This document shows positions 709 through 6,368 of a DNA stretch of 64,000 nucleotides, piece by piece. The position numbers were made by a program, and so were the translations under genes. How positions within the stretch are numbered: the first letter of the stretch is position 1; each line of letters opens with the position of its first letter. This DNA comes from Escherichia phage vB_EcoM_PhAPEC2, in the sequence record NC_024794.1. One strand, 5' to 3'. Under the pieces are notes generated by a model. That model was not told the DNA's origin and made no database searches. It worked only from the letters and a program-made list of their open reading frames with translations.

Positions 709-1167
709 TTATAGGAGGGTAGTGAGCACCTTATATAATGATTTGCCCATTACATATTCCCATTGAGAAGGTTTAATTAAAGCGAATGCATCAAATTCAG
801 GAATCTGACGTCCATCTGGGAATGTATGATAGGAATTACAAATACTGTTTCTGAATTGCTCGTGCTCTACAGGGATGGTATATAGGAACAGATGAATATT
901 CTTATTGTCTGAGTAATGATGTTCGCCTAGGTCTTTCAGGAAGGCAGGGTCATATTGTGTAAACCCAGTTTCTTCTTCGCATTCACGAATAGCGGCTTCG
1001 ATAGGAGATTCGCCAGGTTCGACACGGCCTTTAGGAATATCCCACCGATGAGCTAATGCACCTTTAGGACGAGAACCAGTTACACGGCCCATGAATAACT
1101 CTTTATCTTTTGTCATGAAGATAATACCGGCTGATAGTTCTTTCACTTTATTTTTCTTACTCATCAT
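709..1167 (-). CDS. nudE: Nudix hydrolase
   Basis: Nudix box GRVEPGESPIEAAIRECEEETGF; adjacent to e as T4 e.1/nudE. Confidence 0.8.
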   Translation of the reverse strand: MMSKKNKVKELSAGIIFMTKDKELFMGRVTGSRPKGALAHRWDIPKGRVEPGESPIEAAIRECEEETGFTQYDPAFLKDLGEHHYSDNKNIHLFLYTIPVEHEQFRNSICNSYHTFPDGRQIPEFDAFALIKPSQWEYVMGKSLYKVLTTLL

Positions 1168-1408
1168 CTCGGTCCCATGATTTGGCCATTAATTCGGACA
1201 TAAATTCTTCAATGCGCGTTTCTTTAGACGGACTTTCACTATTAGAGACCGCAAGTTTGTAATCTGCAATAGGACGGAACAAATCAAGGTCCATATTAAG
1301 ATCGTCTTTGATTTTTTCTTCTGACACATCTTTATCGTATGTGTACAGATAACTATCACATGATTCTGATTTAATGTAAATTGCTATACTCATCTCAAAT
1401 TCCTGCAT
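1157..1408 (-). CDS. Hypothetical early protein (83 aa)
   Basis: ORF in the minus-strand early operon; start overlaps the upstream stop. Confidence 0.45.
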   Translation of the reverse strand: MQEFEMSIAIYIKSESCDSYLYTYDKDVSEEKIKDDLNMDLDLFRPIADYKLAVSNSESPSKETRIEEFMSELMAKSWDRDDE

Positions 1409-1881
1409 TCGGTAATAAAACGTTCAACTTCATTATTCTTGGCTTTTATCTTGTCTTTATGTTCTTGTAAACTACTTTTAATAAGATTAATAATGATGGC
1501 AGCGGTACCACCGCCAATGATGCCACCAACAACACTTATGATACTAGATGCTAATAAGATAGCAATAATATCAACAAAACCGAAAGAACTCACCTTAGTA
1601 CTAAAAAACCACACTGACGGTACAAATATAATCCATCCTGTTATCCATTGGCACTTATTGAAAAACTTTTCAAGCTCAGCTTGAGTTGTTCGTATTACTT
1701 CATCGATAGGTTGATATCCGTTAATGTATCTGTTCACAATAATACCTGCTGGCTGGTCGATTTTAAATTCTTGGCAAATATGTTTCACTAAGTAGGATGG
1801 ACATCCTGTCCAATCTACTGAATAGTATGAAATACCTTCATTGCCATCGTCTATATTAGACCAATATGTTTTGTTAATCAT
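1390..1881 (-). CDS. Membrane protein with C-terminal ExFIxECR tail
   Basis: Gly/Ile-rich predicted TM segment; C-terminus ERFITECRNLR; TAATG overlap with the upstream gene. Confidence 0.5.
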   Translation of the reverse strand: MINKTYWSNIDDGNEGISYYSVDWTGCPSYLVKHICQEFKIDQPAGIIVNRYINGYQPIDEVIRTTQAELEKFFNKCQWITGWIIFVPSVWFFSTKVSSFGFVDIIAILLASSIISVVGGIIGGGTAAIIINLIKSSLQEHKDKIKAKNNEVERFITECRNLR

Positions 1882-2567
1882 TACCAGCCTTCCATAGGGA
1901 ATTCCAGATAAACTTGAGCATTGACACGAATTTCATTGGTAATCTTTTTAACTCGATCTGTATTACGAGATACACGTCCGAACCAACGCCATCCGTTACT
2001 AATTGCACGAGAACCAGTGTGCCATGTTTGCCAATCAAACTGAAGAAGAGTACGGTCTGGAGCTTCCCATTTCTCTAGTTCGCCTTTTTCGATTTTTTCG
2101 AGGACTTCTTTGTGCCACTGACGATAGATAAGTTCGCCATCAGGAATCTGACTGAACTCTGCAGTTCCTGTTGCAAAATGAGTAGGACACACACCAGCGT
2201 TAACAAGACCAAGAATATGTTCAGAATGGTAACGAGGGTTGTCATAGTCAGGTTGTCCTGCAGTAATAAAGTGTTGACCAACTGGAATATCAGGGCGTGG
2301 TACGTCATCATGGTGATAGCCTGGGATTGCAGGATACCAACCAGGCATCAGCATGTGGACTCGTGAATCAAATACAACCTGGTCGGTGTTCCAATCATCA
2401 GGCAAGTTCATAATGAAAGAGCGAGTAATAGGACCGCCGTTATTATAAGCAAATTCTAAACTACAGTTGAAGAACATAGGCTCGTTCTTGATTTTATCAT
2501 TAGAAATGCTACCGGCAAAACCACCTACTGCACGAGCTTGACTATTAAACACTTTAGAACTATTCAT
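1881..2567 (-). CDS. Hypothetical protein (228 aa)
   Basis: Long ORF with His/Asp-rich segments; no family recognised. Confidence 0.5.
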   Translation of the reverse strand: MNSSKVFNSQARAVGGFAGSISNDKIKNEPMFFNCSLEFAYNNGGPITRSFIMNLPDDWNTDQVVFDSRVHMLMPGWYPAIPGYHHDDVPRPDIPVGQHFITAGQPDYDNPRYHSEHILGLVNAGVCPTHFATGTAEFSQIPDGELIYRQWHKEVLEKIEKGELEKWEAPDRTLLQFDWQTWHTGSRAISNGWRWFGRVSRNTDRVKKITNEIRVNAQVYLEFPMEGW

Positions 2568-2568
2568 A

Positions 2569-2874
2569 TTATTTTCCTCGACATTCTTTAATGAAATTTT
2601 CTAGATTGGTAGATTCAATAGCTTTTTTACGAGCTTCTGCGTGTTCTTCTTCAGACAATTTACGTTTATAATTGACCCAGACATTATGGTCTAAACCAGT
2701 TGTGGCATATAATATCAAAGCTCCGACGAATAATAAAAACGGTGATAAAAATATACAACCAGGAACACCATCCATACTGTAAGCCTTTTGTAATACGGCA
2801 ACAGAAAGAGCTGCGTAAAAAAGCGATGCAAATATTGTAAAAAGACCGATTCGGTTGGTTTCGCCTAATTTCAT
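2569..2874 (-). CDS. Small membrane protein with C-terminal ENFIKECR tail
   Basis: Two hydrophobic segments; C-terminus ENFIKECRGK; early promoter cassette upstream at 2903-2931. Confidence 0.55.
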   Translation of the reverse strand: MKLGETNRIGLFTIFASLFYAALSVAVLQKAYSMDGVPGCIFLSPFLLFVGALILYATTGLDHNVWVNYKRKLSEEEHAEARKKAIESTNLENFIKECRGK

Positions 2875-2944: not shown

Positions 2945-3901
2945 TTATTTGAAAGGTTTTACCATATGGAAATTTTGTTTGAAACGTTTTACGTAATCGT
3001 CGTGTCCTAAGCTTTGGTACATACTTACAACTTTGCTGTAGTTTTCCCAGGCGTATTCACGGAACCAACCGGAGGTGATGCTTGTGCAGACTTTTTCTAA
3101 TGCCATCATGAAACTGGCTTCAGGGTTAATTTTAAAGTCATTAGGAATCTGAGAACGTTCTAACGCTAGTACACATGATTCTTCGTATACACCGGCCAAT
3201 TTGACCATTTCTGGTAACGATTCGAACTTCTCGCGTGAGGTCATGACTTCAGAACCGTCTTTCATGTAAAACGTATAAGCCGGACGGTCTGTTAGTGCAA
3301 TGGCTTCATGAATAGTATCATGGTCATATGTATAGATGTCATCTTTAAAGAACGCACTTTTAGAAGTGTCAAGAACTGGGTGAGCATAGTTCAAAGTTTC
3401 TTTCTGGCGTTTCAGCATAATTTCAGTAAGTTCATCGTTCAGTGTAACACCTTTACCACGAAGATACTGGATATGGTTCATAGTCTTTAAAAAGAATGGA
3501 TTATTTTTCTTGAAACGATGAGACATTTTAATTGCAAGACATATCTCAGGAGTTGCCCAGTAAAACCCGGTCAAACGATCTTTAGTCAAATTTTTCTTGG
3601 CGTATTTTAAAAGGTCATAAGAAGACGTGAAATCTTCAGGAGTGAGTTCGCCGATTAATTCACGGACATTAGTGATTGCCGGAACAATATACGCTTCAAA
3701 ATGAGTTTCGCGTCCGTTATGGAAGCATTTGAAAACTTGGACATCAGGGTTATCTTGGTGAACATATACACCCATCATTTGATTTTTGAATGCATTCCAA
3801 GAACATTGGTCTGCAATAAAGTCCCAGTCACTATTTTTGATAGCGTTAGAATCAATAAGACCATGATAGTGAAGTGCACGAGAACCAATAACTAACATCA
3901 T
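2945..3901 (-). CDS. Putative Pol-beta-superfamily nucleotidyltransferase (318 aa)
   Basis: N-terminal hGS...SDxDh signature (VIGSRALHYHGLIDSNAIKNSDWDFIA) typical of minimal nucleotidyltransferases; no T4 counterpart recalled. Confidence 0.5.
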   Translation of the reverse strand: MMLVIGSRALHYHGLIDSNAIKNSDWDFIADQCSWNAFKNQMMGVYVHQDNPDVQVFKCFHNGRETHFEAYIVPAITNVRELIGELTPEDFTSSYDLLKYAKKNLTKDRLTGFYWATPEICLAIKMSHRFKKNNPFFLKTMNHIQYLRGKGVTLNDELTEIMLKRQKETLNYAHPVLDTSKSAFFKDDIYTYDHDTIHEAIALTDRPAYTFYMKDGSEVMTSREKFESLPEMVKLAGVYEESCVLALERSQIPNDFKINPEASFMMALEKVCTSITSGWFREYAWENYSKVVSMYQSLGHDDYVKRFKQNFHMVKPFK

Positions 3902-3929
3902 AATATTTTCCTCGGATTAATTCATTAAC

Positions 3930-4169
3930 TTAAATTTCACGACATGCGATATTATATTCATCCCAGAGGTCATCATGTGAAGCCTCTACCAATGGAACGA
4001 TTGTACCGTTTATGTCTTCATTATAAGGGCAAATTGTACAGTGCGCGTCTTCGAATCGGATGCCTTTGTGTTCAGATTTTTTATAACGCATATCGAATAT
4101 CTTTGCAAACTTTTCACGAGTAATGGTTTTAGCAACCACTTTGGTTCCAATACTTTCGTAATAAATCAT
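3930..4169 (-). CDS. Hypothetical early protein (79 aa)
   Basis: ORF directly downstream of the early promoter cassette at 4198-4226. Confidence 0.45.
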   Translation of the reverse strand: MIYYESIGTKVVAKTITREKFAKIFDMRYKKSEHKGIRFEDAHCTICPYNEDINGTIVPLVEASHDDLWDEYNIACREI

Positions 4170-4197
4170 TGTGGACTCCGTTTAATTTGATAGGACT

Positions 4198-4226
4198 ACT
4201 ATAACATAGCCCTATCTTGTTGTAAA
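4198..4226 (-). promoter_or_regulatory. Early promoter cassette (PeSL-like)
   Basis: Same architecture and near-identical sequence to 2903-2931 and 11747-11775. Confidence 0.6.
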
Positions 4227-4231
4227 CTGTT

Positions 4232-4429
4232 TTAGCAAGAATAACTAGATGATACCCAGCCTTGAACAGTGATACTATTGTGGGATAATGAGATCGCGTC
4301 CTGGAGATTCAGACCTGCGTTATCTTCAATCCATAATGTAACTTCTTCGCGTTCTTCTGTTGCAATTTGGAACAGGTTTTCCAGGGCAGCTACTGCCGTA
4401 CGTACAGCACAATCTAATTCACGAGACAT
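4232..4429 (-). CDS. Paralog family member, C-terminus GWVSSSYSC
   Basis: Third of three tandem paralogs ending GxWVxSSxxC-stop. Confidence 0.5.
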   Translation of the reverse strand: MSRELDCAVRTAVAALENLFQIATEEREEVTLWIEDNAGLNLQDAISLSHNSITVQGWVSSSYSC

Positions 4430-4438
4430 ATGATTTCC

Positions 4439-4711
4439 TTAACAAGTGTGAGAAGATGCAACCCAACCACCAGTTTCGAGGCTCAGGTTGTAGTCGTATT
4501 GGTAAACGTCGGCCCATTCAGCATAGCCGTTTTTTGTACAACGTTCAAGATCGGCTTTAAGATGTCCTGGTGAATGATAGGTTCCACCCATACCATAAGC
4601 TGGGTACAAGTCGAATGTTGTGTTTTGTTTATCAGCAATTTCTTTGGCAGCCTCAATAGCTGCATAGATTTTTGCTACGGCTTCAGCCAGTTCGGTTTGT
4701 TCTTTAGACAT
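4439..4711 (-). CDS. Paralog family member, C-terminus GGWVASSHTC
   Basis: Shares GGTYHSPG and C-terminal motifs with 4721-5026; the conserved codons differ at synonymous sites. Confidence 0.55.
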   Translation of the reverse strand: MSKEQTELAEAVAKIYAAIEAAKEIADKQNTTFDLYPAYGMGGTYHSPGHLKADLERCTKNGYAEWADVYQYDYNLSLETGGWVASSHTC

Positions 4712-4720
4712 AATGATTCC

Positions 4721-5026
4721 TTAGCACAACGCAGAAGACGAAACCCAAGCACCTTCAGTAATAACGTAACCATTACCTTCACGCTTAACATCGCCACCAT
4801 TATTTTCAATTTCATCTTTCATCCACTGGGATACGATTTCACCCTTAGGATAATAAGTACGACCGCTACCATAATCACCTACAGAAAATGATACGGCATA
4901 TTGGTCTGCGATCTTTGTTGCTTCTTCTTCGATACGTTCAGCTTGATTCAGAAGTTTATAAATTGCATCTGAAGCGGATTTGGCATCATTAAACTCTGGT
5001 ACTTTAATTTCAATAATCTTACTCAT
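4721..5026 (-). CDS. Paralog family member, C-terminus GAWVSSSALC
   Basis: Shares GRTYYPKG and C-terminal motifs; start overlaps the upstream stop (ATGA). Confidence 0.55.
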   Translation of the reverse strand: MSKIIEIKVPEFNDAKSASDAIYKLLNQAERIEEEATKIADQYAVSFSVGDYGSGRTYYPKGEIVSQWMKDEIENNGGDVKREGNGYVITEGAWVSSSALC

Positions 5027-5382
5027 TTTCTACATTCCTTAATAAAGTTTTCAATTGTTTCATTTTCACGTCTAGCTAGGAGTTCATTATAACTAATCAT
5101 TTGAGAAGCGTAAACCTTTTTATTTTTCTTGTTATGGTTTATAAAATCGTAGTAAAAATAGACTACAGTACAAAATGATGCGATGGATGCAAAGGCTTGG
5201 GTGTATCTTAGGTCCTGCCATTGGTCTGTGAATCCACCGGTATTCCCTATAAATCCTAACACAACTCCGTCAATAAGAAATCCAACTAATCCAAAGGCAA
5301 ATCCCATGCCAATACTCATAATAAAAATTAGAATGTTCTCACCAAGAGACGGCCATACGGTTAAGAGTTGAGGCTTTTGCAT
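5023..5382 (-). CDS. Small membrane protein with C-terminal ENFIKECRK tail
   Basis: N-terminal TM helices, charged C-terminal half, terminal ENFIKECRK. Confidence 0.55.
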   Translation of the reverse strand: MQKPQLLTVWPSLGENILIFIMSIGMGFAFGLVGFLIDGVVLGFIGNTGGFTDQWQDLRYTQAFASIASFCTVVYFYYDFINHNKKNKKVYASQMISYNELLARRENETIENFIKECRK

Positions 5383-5756
5383 CTTATTTCCTTAACGAAT
5401 TCCATAGCTTCTTCATATTCATATTTTTTAACAGCTTCATCATACTGAGCTTGGGCTTTTGCGCACTGAACTTTCCACTCGCGAACTCGAGCTCTGTGAT
5501 GACGGCCTTGGTGCCAATATCCTGCCCAATTAATAGGCATTAATAAAAACGGTACAATAAGTGGTGCGACGAACATTAATGAAAACGCTGCATCAGACGA
5601 TATAACTTTATTGGAATCTAAAATAGCTCCTATAATCATAAAGATTAAAAATGCTAAAGCTAAAATAGGGCCAAATAGTACTTCGTTTGGGATTAATTTA
5701 CGTTTGTATTCGTATGCCCATGGCTTAATTGGCATGTACAGGGTTGGCTTTGACAT
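5361..5756 (-). CDS. Small membrane protein with EFVKEIRC tail
   Basis: Likely ATG at 5756 (MSKPTLYM...; the track starts at a TTG at 5786); two TM segments. Confidence 0.5.
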   Translation of the reverse strand: MSKPTLYMPIKPWAYEYKRKLIPNEVLFGPILALAFLIFMIIGAILDSNKVISSDAAFSLMFVAPLIVPFLLMPINWAGYWHQGRHHRARVREWKVQCAKAQAQYDEAVKKYEYEEAMEFVKEIRCKSLNS

Positions 5757-6327
5757 ATTCTCTACATTCCATAATAAATTGCTCAAGGATTAAATTGTTA
5801 GTGAAATTAGGACTAACAACCATAGTTTCATAAAGCGCATCAATAGCACTTAAAGCATCAACTCTTTTAAGCAAAGGCTTGCCTTCATACATAGTTTCAG
5901 AATCGACGATTAACGTAAAGTAATATTTTTTATTATCGACTAGAACTTCTGTGTCGATATAAAACATATTAGACCTCAGAAGCTTATCTCTAAAACCATA
6001 ATAATCTTCTGAACGTTCGCTGATATATTCCAATTCAGTGTTTAAACAACAAACAGACCACGTAGGAGCAACGAAATCAGTGAATCTAATATCATGGTCT
6101 GCAACTAGTTTAGCAATAGCTCCGATATCATGAATCATAATACCTGGGGCTAATAAAGATTTTCTGCTATGGCTAGCAGTTTTCTCAGTGGTCTCATAAG
6201 AAGCTGACCAGTACCATTTACGTCCGGTTGCAACATATCGTAATGAATCAACTAAAGACGTAGGTGGATTTACCTTATCTCGGAACTCTTCGAACATTGA
6301 GTCAATATCATTATTTTGGTTTCGCAT
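5725..6327 (-). CDS. Hypothetical protein with C-terminal EQFIMECR motif
   Basis: Likely start MRNQNN at 6327 with an AAGGAG Shine-Dalgarno; the track start at 6372 lies inside the terminator hairpin. Confidence 0.5.
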   Translation of the reverse strand: MRNQNNDIDSMFEEFRDKVNPPTSLVDSLRYVATGRKWYWSASYETTEKTASHSRKSLLAPGIMIHDIGAIAKLVADHDIRFTDFVAPTWSVCCLNTELEYISERSEDYYGFRDKLLRSNMFYIDTEVLVDNKKYYFTLIVDSETMYEGKPLLKRVDALSAIDALYETMVVSPNFTNNLILEQFIMECREYVKANPVHAN

Positions 6328-6344: not shown

Positions 6345-6368
6345 CCAAAAGGAGGACCGGAGTCCTCC
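6345..6368 (-). terminator. Rho-independent terminator
   Basis: GGAGGAC-UCCG-GUCCUCC hairpin followed by UUUUGG on the minus strand. Confidence 0.6.

Follow-up and report, generated by a model that had tools for sequence, protein, structure and literature searches.

Small cysteine-tailed proteins encoded in tandem in a Mosigvirus genome and their linkage to a DUF7277/DUF7275 gene

Three adjacent open reading frames (ORFs) of 101, 90 and 65 amino acids (aa) are situated on the minus strand at positions 4232–5026 of a 64,000-nucleotide (nt) stretch of DNA from Escherichia phage vB_EcoM_PhAPEC2 (sequence record NC_024794.1; the whole stretch is termed here the window). All three encode small proteins with a related C-terminal tail that ends in cysteine. 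The array belongs to a two-component phage module that is widespread and uncharacterised; it is neither specific to T4 nor a local oddity. On the best reading, the three ORFs supply the small proteins of a conserved module of two parts that is restricted to phages; the mechanism of this module is a hypothesis that is set out below. The most informative feature of the locus, which was missed when the DNA was read from its sequence alone, is a near-obligatory linkage of such genes to a gene of the type found downstream of the array, which encodes a 318-aa protein with the Pfam domains DUF7277 (residues 2–101, E-value = 1.6e-27) and DUF7275 (residues 120–305, E-value = 4.8e-79) and belongs to phrog_2141. 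No characterised system of this kind is known, and the 318-aa partner probably has a divergent form of the nucleotidyltransferase fold.

The linkage is seen from both sides. When the neighbouring genes of 41 small-gene loci were clustered, a cluster of ~300-aa proteins was present in 37 of the 41, and any other cluster in at most nine. The large gene is on the same strand and is almost always directly downstream of 1–6 genes for Cys-tailed proteins. The four exceptions are two contigs that end before the position in question (L014 and L039) and two that have no large gene within 4 kb (L006 and L007). In the reverse direction, the analysis began with annotated phages from other lineages in which tblastn matched the large protein. 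Five of five such phages with a full-length large gene (Phapecoctavirus ukendt, Pseudomonas Otagovirus M5.1, Acinetobacter Abraxas, Xanthomonas X1 and Stenotrophomonas IME-SM1) have at least two Cys-tailed genes within ~2 kb, as detected with the hidden Markov model (HMM) of the family, and all seven metagenomic loci around large-gene homologues hold 1–6 copies within ~3 kb. Five phages with a homologue of DUF7275 only (KVP40, Vibrio R16F, Gordonia, Streptomyces and Limnohabitans) have zero Cys-tailed genes.

The host-genus counts of tblastn matches run in parallel for the small and the large protein: Aeromonas 59 and 57, Enterobacter 36 and 34, Klebsiella 35 and 30, Shigella 18 and 17. The large family comprises 2,881 clusters at 90% identity; among the 120 listed, all are ~300 aa in length and nearly all have both DUFs.

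The array, its family and the age of the copies

The window is from a Mosigvirus, i.e. an RB69/JS09-like T4-type phage, and not from T4. The region at positions 3900–5400 is 98% identical to Shigella phage JK36, vB_EcoM_SA79RD, APCEc01 and ~130 others. In annotated relatives the array genes are termed “hypothetical protein”, and those for the 101-aa and 65-aa proteins are noted as similar to RB69ORF139c and RB69ORF136c. Table 1 gives the coordinates of the three genes. The sequence-only reading had described them as a paralogue family, and ORFs of these three lengths with a real similarity are indeed present; its framing of the question in terms of T4 does not hold, as the syntenic e-to-tRNA region of T4 has no family member, and a scan of T4 positions 64–74 kb with the family HMM finds none. 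T4 e.2, which has the same position after e.3, was considered as a member and rejected, its sequence being unrelated and without a match to the family HMM.

Pairwise BLASTP comparisons of the three proteins show ~30% identity (E-values = 3e-6, 1e-3 and 4e-4). The family HMM gives the three proteins E-values of 1e-24, 2e-24 and 1e-7 (1.3e-24 for the 90-aa and 1.1e-7 for the 65-aa protein); these scores are partly circular because close orthologues were included when the HMM was built. As judged from the sequences, the similarity among the three ORFs is greater than expected by chance. The same HMM detects no copy beyond these three over the 64-kb window. In searches of PHROG HMMs, the 101-aa and 90-aa proteins match phrog_899 (E-values = 1.3e-22 and 3.5e-19) and the 65-aa protein matches phrog_4882 (E-value = 7.7e-37).

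A second motif of the form G-(G/R)-T-Y had been noticed in two of the copies, and it is present as GRTYYPKG in the 101-aa protein and as GGTYHSPG in the 90-aa protein. It is absent from the 65-aa protein, which has kept the N-terminal helix and the tail and has lost the YGxGGTYY loop. Differences in codon usage between the copies, which had also been pointed out, are readily seen in the tail. Across the three copies the Val codons are GTT, GTT and GTA, the first Ser position is TCG, GCA (Ala) and TCA, the third Ser is TCT, TCT and AGT, and the Cys codons are TGC, TGT and TGC. Thus the similarity of the tails is maintained at the protein level.

The start codon of the 101-aa gene is overlapped by the stop codon of the e.3 homologue (ATGA). 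Both intergenic spacers are 9 nt in length and of the form TAA-GGAA(A)TCAT(T)-ATG, with a Shine-Dalgarno-like GGA right after the stop codon. This tight packing makes a translational coupling of the three genes plausible.

A tblastn search with the 101-aa protein yielded 393 phage records, from Mosigvirus, Dhakavirus-like and Karamvirus-like phages and from T4-like phages of Aeromonas, Yersinia, Serratia and Edwardsiella. Profile searches extend the family to contigs of jumbo phages of 355–395 kb and to many unrelated viral contigs. A HMMER scan of 1.84 billion representatives gave 781 matches at E ≤ 1e-3 (representatives at 50% identity) and 168 at E ≤ 1e-10; among the matches listed, nearly all align through the last residue. 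Of 60 diverse homologues, 59 match phrog_899, and both phrog_899 and phrog_4882 are annotated as “unknown function”. A scan for the partner gene in one genome each of 185,579 bacterial and archaeal species detected it in only six contigs of metagenome-assembled genomes (MAGs). Thus the system is essentially viral.

The tail is the most constant part of the sequence. A terminal Cys is present in 182 of 194 database proteins, and these 182 have Trp at position –7 (181), Ser at position –4 (all) and Ser at position –3 (180). Among the 105 unique members in the set of loci, 99 end in Cys and 91 display W-x-x-S-x(1 or 3)-C. The universal rule may be written W-x-x-S-x(1–4)-C-stop, and all three window proteins comply with it. 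Other tail classes found in the loci are shorter or longer, e.g. W-Q-G-S-S-C and W-Y-S-S-S-M-Q-N-C. The full consensus consists of an N-terminal helix, followed by A-x-x-I-A-D-E-x-G-x-x-F-x-F and Y-G-M-G-G-T-Y-Y-P, then an acidic and aromatic linker of variable length, and finally G-W-V-S-S-S-x-x-C; reduced members, such as the 65-aa copy, have the helix and the tail only. The family is acidic, with a median isoelectric point (pI) of 4.5. The number of copies per locus is 1–6, and 17 of 56 loci have a single copy.

The terminal Cys is the sole Cys in 106 of 188 members. With a single Cys, one chain cannot form a multi-Cys metal site, and the suggestion in the sequence-only reading of a reactive or metal-binding terminus remains a guess. 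The conservation of the terminus, also proposed there, is borne out: the same terminus is found in hundreds of other phages.

Two variants of the tail should be mentioned. A cluster of 142–159-aa proteins (c19), encoded directly upstream of the large gene in four loci (L016 3324–3803, L027 4150–4626, L028 4651–, and L031 4153–), ends in W-H-S-S-(M/R)-C and, to judge by sequence, appears to be a long divergent member of the family that the HMM missed. In addition, a 72-aa protein (L042, 2413–2631) has an internal W-Q-S-S-S-C as well as a terminal W-H-S-S-S-C.

The AlphaFold model of the 101-aa protein has a predicted local distance difference test (pLDDT) score of 92 and a predicted template modelling (pTM) score of 0.78. 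It has helices at positions 15–43 and 67–75 and strands at 47–49, 56–59, 79–83, 86–91 and 93–96. The last strand (93–96) is AWVS and is followed by a short turn (97–100), with the confidence falling at the final residue. Thus the Trp anchors the last strand, and S-S-x-x-C forms an exposed end. The N-terminal helices of some members are lengthened to coiled-coil length.

The model shows no match to a known fold in a structure search of the PDB, including PII, metalloprotein and beta-grasp folds. Sequence searches with the small proteins gave nothing significant in Pfam and NCBIfam and chance-level matches in PADLOC (E-value = 0.01 or weaker). The best match of a profile search against PDB sequences, a designed helical protein (E-value = 0.026), was rejected as a helix-only match. 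A literature search on the ORF names, PHROGs, DUFs and motif descriptions found nothing relevant. Thus it can be said, as had been supposed for the signature, that no characterised protein with this tail is present in Pfam, NCBIfam, PADLOC, the PDB or the literature searched. Neither the tail rule nor the linkage was found to have been described before, and the member families are catalogued only as “unknown function”.

The ratio of nonsynonymous to synonymous substitution rates (dN/dS) was determined from ten Mosigvirus genomes as pooled Nei-Gojobori estimates (Table 1). The values show that the three array genes are under purifying selection, with a constraint equal to that of their neighbours. 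When each copy is compared with its orthologue at the corresponding array position in T4-like phages of other genera, the identity is 42%–50% (101-aa type), 51%–57% (90-aa type) and 63% (65-aa type). Each copy is thus nearer to its counterpart elsewhere (42%–63%) than to its own neighbours (~30%). The order of the sub-types is repeated in distant contigs (L022, L058 and L060), and a four-type order is found in T4-like phages. This recurring order shows that the paralogues are old and individually maintained. A recent duplication followed by drift is ruled out by the dN/dS values of 0.045–0.105, which are not near 1, together with the same-position orthologues in other genera.

Inactivated copies do occur. 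In Shigella phage phi25-307 (L070, 1401–1598) the 65-aa gene carries a stop codon at the invariant Trp. Frameshifts are present in the 101-aa gene of the RB69 record (P0002, 71 aa) and in the 90-aa gene of mar005P1 (P0048, 75 aa). These could represent real decay or sequencing errors.

The large protein and what the pair may do

Conserved motifs of the large protein were taken from alignments of 36 sequences that are 38%–48% identical to the window protein. G6, S7, D25 and D27 are invariant, with a spacing of 13–17 residues between GS and DxD. E69, within a predicted strand at positions 65–71, is at least 90% conserved in one alignment and is not listed as conserved in a second. The DUF7275 region has the invariant residues K125, H128, R129, K139, T140, R165, Y190, H194, D195, H198, E240, E241, E248, R249, K270, C272, R281 and E282. 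The AlphaFold model (pLDDT 83, pTM 0.80) shows the order b1 (2–5), helix (6–12), b2 (26–30), helix (32–45), b3 (57–62) and b4 (65–71), followed by an all-helical domain at 118–309.

By established knowledge (Holm & Sander 1995; Aravind & Koonin 1999), the signature of Pol-beta-type nucleotidyltransferases consists of G-S at a strand-helix junction, D-x-D at the start of the next strand and an acidic residue in a later strand. The 318-aa protein has the hG[GS] motif followed by [DE]h[DE]h on the next strand, as in this superfamily, and the predicted order of its secondary-structure elements is compatible with a Pol-beta-type alpha/beta core. Homologues of the large protein are termed “nucleotidyltransferase” independently in three GenBank records. 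Taken together, it is fairly probable that the large protein is a nucleotidyltransferase. An HD-domain phosphohydrolase was considered for DUF7275 and rejected, since the spacing of H128, H194-D195, H198 and E240/E241 is atypical and there is no Pfam HD match up to an E-value of 5.

The following model is proposed for the pair. The small protein is an acidic alpha/beta protein with an N-terminal helix, a Y-G-x-G-G-T-Y-Y loop (absent from reduced copies) and a last beta-strand with the invariant Trp, from which the tail W-x-x-S-x(1–4)-C-COOH emerges to end at a free cysteine. The large protein has its G-S...D-x-D...E motifs, followed by the helical domain with many invariant Lys, Arg, His, Asp and Glu residues and one invariant Cys. 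The enzyme would recognise the Trp-anchored tail and act on it, the most likely reaction being a nucleotide transfer onto the hydroxyl of the conserved tail Ser or onto the terminal Cys. One enzyme would have the old, diverged paralogues as its alternative substrates or adaptors, and these would probably be directed at host targets in the early phase of infection. Physical interaction, enzymatic activity, type of modification and biological target are all presumed in this model. As a whole, a relationship of enzyme and partner or substrate is favoured tentatively and may well prove wrong; less confidence still is placed in the specific chemistry, i.e. nucleotide transfer to the tail.

Several points weigh against the model. 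Pfam searches of the large protein up to an E-value of 5 give DUF7277 and DUF7275 only and no nucleotidyltransferase family; one of 27 members reaches DUF6036, at an E-value of 0.25. The profile of the large family matches no PDB sequence. The hhalign probability is below 1% against kanamycin nucleotidyltransferase and 0.2% against the N-terminus of E. coli GlnD, and PADLOC gave nothing relevant for the large protein (no AbiE, MNT or HEPN). Two loci, those without a large gene within 4 kb, do have small genes. In this Mosigvirus the array is separated from the large gene by a promoter-like site (4198–4226) and, in the relative SA79RD, by a terminator annotated in the intergenic region between the 65-aa and 79-aa ORFs; given the promoter-like site, transcription of the large gene in this phage may be in part independent of that of the array. 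None of the models explains why a Cys is required, and why at the terminus. Finally, interaction and modification are presumed, and gene linkage in mosaic genomes, though strong, is circumstantial.

A more far-reaching form of the model may be considered, in which phages have an undescribed protein-modification system. A Pol-beta-type nucleotidyltransferase would charge the Ser...Cys-COOH tail of dedicated carriers, by nucleotidylylation or another activation of the terminal cysteine, and the charged paralogues would each hit a different host target. This would be a phage counterpart, in logic and with unrelated folds, of the ubiquitin-like/E1 or PII/GlnD systems. It is possible, and rather doubtful. 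An unlikely alternative is that the small acidic proteins act in the manner of inhibitors or antitoxins and, as pseudo-substrates, regulate a nucleotidyltransferase-like enzyme that is potentially toxic; until this enzyme is required, its active site would be plugged by the Ser...Cys-COOH tail, e.g. through chelation of the catalytic metal. The layout, in which the gene for a small acidic protein (pI ~4.5) immediately precedes a larger gene, is like that of type II and type IV toxin-antitoxin loci, nucleotidyltransferase toxins that have a protein partner are well established (AbiEii/MenT, MntA-HepT), and the invariant Cys272 of the large protein could pair with the tail Cys. However, up to six old and diverged paralogues per enzyme are not expected of a simple inhibitor, PADLOC finds no AbiE, MNT or HEPN match, and the module is essentially absent from bacterial genomes (the six MAG contigs among 185,579 species genomes). 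The proteins might instead be independent effectors that act alone on host targets, e.g. by inhibition or mimicry during host takeover or anti-defence or, through the Gly-rich YGMGGTYY loop, as sponges, with the large gene merely sharing a regulatory or functional neighbourhood. Small, acidic, phage-only proteins of the early region in diversified tandem arrays are typical of anti-defence and host-takeover genes, the array in this phage may have its own promoter, and L006 and L007 are without a large gene nearby. This explanation, also unlikely, leaves unaccounted for the sole neighbour that is retained, when all other neighbours differ, across T4-like phages, jumbo phages of 355–395 kb, Phapecoctavirus, Otagovirus and Acinetobacter and Xanthomonas phages. 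Moreover, the universally conserved element is the tail and not the loop, which is gone in reduced copies.

The remaining explanations are less probable. Homo- or hetero-oligomers of the paralogues could gather their terminal cysteines for a metal, a cluster (Fe-S) or a sulfur relay. The terminal thiol and carboxylate are invariant, several paralogues are co-expressed, and the long N-terminal helices could drive oligomerisation; yet over half of the members examined (106/188) have one Cys per chain, there is no other invariant ligand such as His or Asp, single-copy loci are common (17/56), no metalloprotein fold is resembled and the linkage to the large gene is not accounted for, so that such a site is improbable. 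It is highly improbable that the small proteins are scaffolds for a small molecule, in the manner of pearlins or of ribosomally synthesised and post-translationally modified peptides (RiPPs), with the neighbouring enzyme converting the C-terminal Cys and the product then being released. Several diverged precursor-like genes beside one enzyme gene are the classic RiPP layout, and the conserved site of action would be at the extreme C-terminus; but the products are confidently folded domains of 60–130 aa and not leader-core peptides, and no RiPP enzyme family is seen among the neighbours in Pfam searches of 10 annotated loci, nor is a protease or an exporter recurrent nearby. Lack of any function, whether by a recent local triplication or as spurious drifting ORFs, would fit the stop codon in phi25-307 and the frameshifted copies of RB69 and mar005P1; it is refuted by the low dN/dS values, the same-position orthologues and the 781 representatives with the same tail, and may be dismissed almost entirely.

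If the linkage reflects a real system of enzyme and partner, two large families of phage “dark matter” become connected, which jointly occur in T4-like phages, jumbo phages, Phapecoctavirus, Otagovirus and phages of Acinetobacter, Xanthomonas and Stenotrophomonas. An encoded terminal cysteine on a Trp-anchored tail would then be the handle of an undescribed protein-based chemistry in early infection. The system lends itself to experiment: E. coli phages that are easy to grow, the BASEL phage Bas47 among them, carry it, and its proteins are small and look soluble. Should the small proteins prove to be ordinary host-directed effectors, the invariant tail still provides a sequence rule for members that HMMs miss.

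Surrounding genes and transcription signals

Table 1. Coordinates of the array, the large gene and associated features in the window, with dN/dS values
Feature	Position	Strand	Description	dN/dS
e.3 homologue				0.040
Promoter-like site	5086–5114	minus	TTTACG-17-TATAAT; inside e.3 homologue, upstream of array; consensus scan	
Small Cys-tailed protein, first copy	4721–5026	minus	101 aa; ends GAWVSSSALC; DYGSGRTYYP type; RB69ORF139c orthologue	0.058
Spacer, 101-aa stop to 90-aa start	4712–4720	minus	9 nt; TAA-GGAATCATT-ATG; Shine-Dalgarno-like GGA	
Small Cys-tailed protein, second copy	4439–4711	minus	90 aa; ends GGWVASSHTC; canonical YGMGGTY type	0.105
Spacer, 90-aa stop to 65-aa start	4430–4438	minus	9 nt; TAA-GGAAATCAT-ATG; Shine-Dalgarno-like GGA	
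Small Cys-tailed protein, reduced copy	4232–4429	minus	65 aa; ends QGWVSSSYSC; RB69ORF136c orthologue	0.045
Promoter-like site	4198–4226	minus	TTTACA-17-TATAGT, extended TG; between 65-aa stop and 79-aa start; consensus scan	
79-aa ORF	3930–4169	minus	phrog_3723 (E-value = 7e-37); between array and 318-aa gene	
Large partner gene	2945–3901	minus	318 aa; RB69ORF134c orthologue; 330 nt downstream of array	0.073

The two promoter-like sites in Table 1 are from a consensus scan in which the number of sites was not above the shuffled expectation. At the place equivalent to the upstream site, a T4-type middle promoter is annotated in SA79RD. Between the e.5 and e.6 homologues (6351–6368) there is a strong bidirectional terminator-like hairpin, GGAGGACC-GGAG-TCCTCC with a T-run, which coincides with an annotated terminator in SA79RD.

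The product of the 79-aa ORF, which separates the array from the large gene, has an H-C-x-x-C-P motif and a Cys close to its terminus. Only Mosigvirus and Karam-like loci have a member of its cluster (c5) immediately upstream of the large gene. Because this position is kept only in T4-like relatives, its membership in the module is uncertain.

A very acidic protein of 83 aa (cluster c2), encoded at positions 1157–1408 of the minus strand in the window, co-occurs with the module in three lineages. Its gene is directly upstream of the array in jumbo contigs of 355–371 kb (L008 3705–3977, L009 3690–3944), directly downstream of the large gene in L038 (5748–), and ~1.5 kb downstream of the large gene in the window. 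The c2 protein could be a third, looser component of the module.

In T4 the interval from nudE to e.3 has e.2 only (102 aa; T4 67.0–68.3 kb, L073). The same interval in this Mosigvirus is ~4.3 kb in length and has at least nine genes, including the module. Comparison of window positions 709–2874 and 2945–5026 with T4 thus indicates a hyperplastic insertion site.

Genes with a possible relation to RNA repair are present near several loci. A gene that resembles polynucleotide kinase/phosphatase (a P-loop and DxDGT were recognised by eye) lies a few kb upstream of the module in jumbo-phage and other contigs, at ~3.5 kb from the arrays in loci L006–L009, L014, L026, L029 and L033. The ~300-aa cluster c4, upstream in the jumbo-phage loci, was considered as a second enzyme partner and rejected because of this resemblance. 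In a 395-kb contig (L053, 1140–1787) a match to the Pfam family RNA_ligase lies a few kb upstream of the module, and in T4-like phages the module is near a tRNA gene cluster. This may be an RNA-repair neighbourhood, or mere mosaicism of the early region.

Two further neighbours bear on single loci or records. In a 44-kb contig (L052, 3113–3412) a 99-aa gene directly upstream of the large gene has a Pfam match to ClpS (PF02617); the match is not a general feature of the module, other loci being without it. The e.4 homologue (5361–5786, minus strand; 5462–5836 in L001) is hydrophobic-looking and is termed “sulfurtransferase” in the records of JK36, F27, F31 and JK42. This label, a possible clue to sulfur chemistry, looks unreliable and was not used as evidence, and the gene was taken to lie outside the module.

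Comparison with known systems

The window proteins are clear members of PHROGs 899, 4882 and 2141 and of DUF7277 and DUF7275, all five of which are catalogued as “unknown function”. Comparison with characterised systems is therefore one of organisation and logic.

Tandem, diverged small genes with a single enzyme gene and a site near the C-terminus recall RiPP clusters, e.g. the prochlorosins with ProcM. Unlike RiPP precursors, the products here are stably folded (pLDDT 92), the variable part is a middle linker and not a core peptide, and no known RiPP enzyme family is present. Acyl and peptidyl carriers are likewise small acidic proteins with a single thiol on a flexible arm. However, the thiol here is that of an encoded terminal Cys and not of a cofactor on Ser, the fold is not a four-helix one, and there are no adenylation or ketosynthase partners nearby.

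ThiS and MoaD with ThiF and MoeB, and ubiquitin-like proteins in general, share with the module as proposed here a small protein with an invariant C-terminal motif and an adjacent nucleotide-transferring enzyme that acts on this terminus. The terminus here is ...S-x-x-C and not G-G, there is no beta-grasp match, and the neighbouring enzyme is not E1- or ThiF-like. MntA-HepT and AbiEii/MenT resemble the proposed pair in layout: these are two-gene modules of a minimal G-S...D-x-D nucleotidyltransferase (~100–300 aa) and a partner that is modified or exerts control. They differ in that PADLOC and Pfam give no match to MNT, HEPN, AbiEii or DUF1814, in that the partner encoded here, in 1–6 copies, has a new alpha/beta fold and a Cys tail, and in that the module occurs in lytic phages and not in bacterial chromosomes.

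The last comparison is with GlnD and PII. The site in question here would be the extreme C-terminus ending in Cys, and not the T-loop Tyr of PII; the small proteins have no Pfam P-II or PII structural match, and the module is restricted to phages. The likeness is that GlnD, with a Pol-beta-type domain and a helical His/Asp domain, acts on an alpha/beta protein of ~100 aa with a conserved exposed hydroxyl, a combination that would be paralleled by the two proteins described here. It is established knowledge that one such enzyme can serve several PII paralogues, and in this respect the array and its single large gene may be analogous to GlnD-PII, in logic only.

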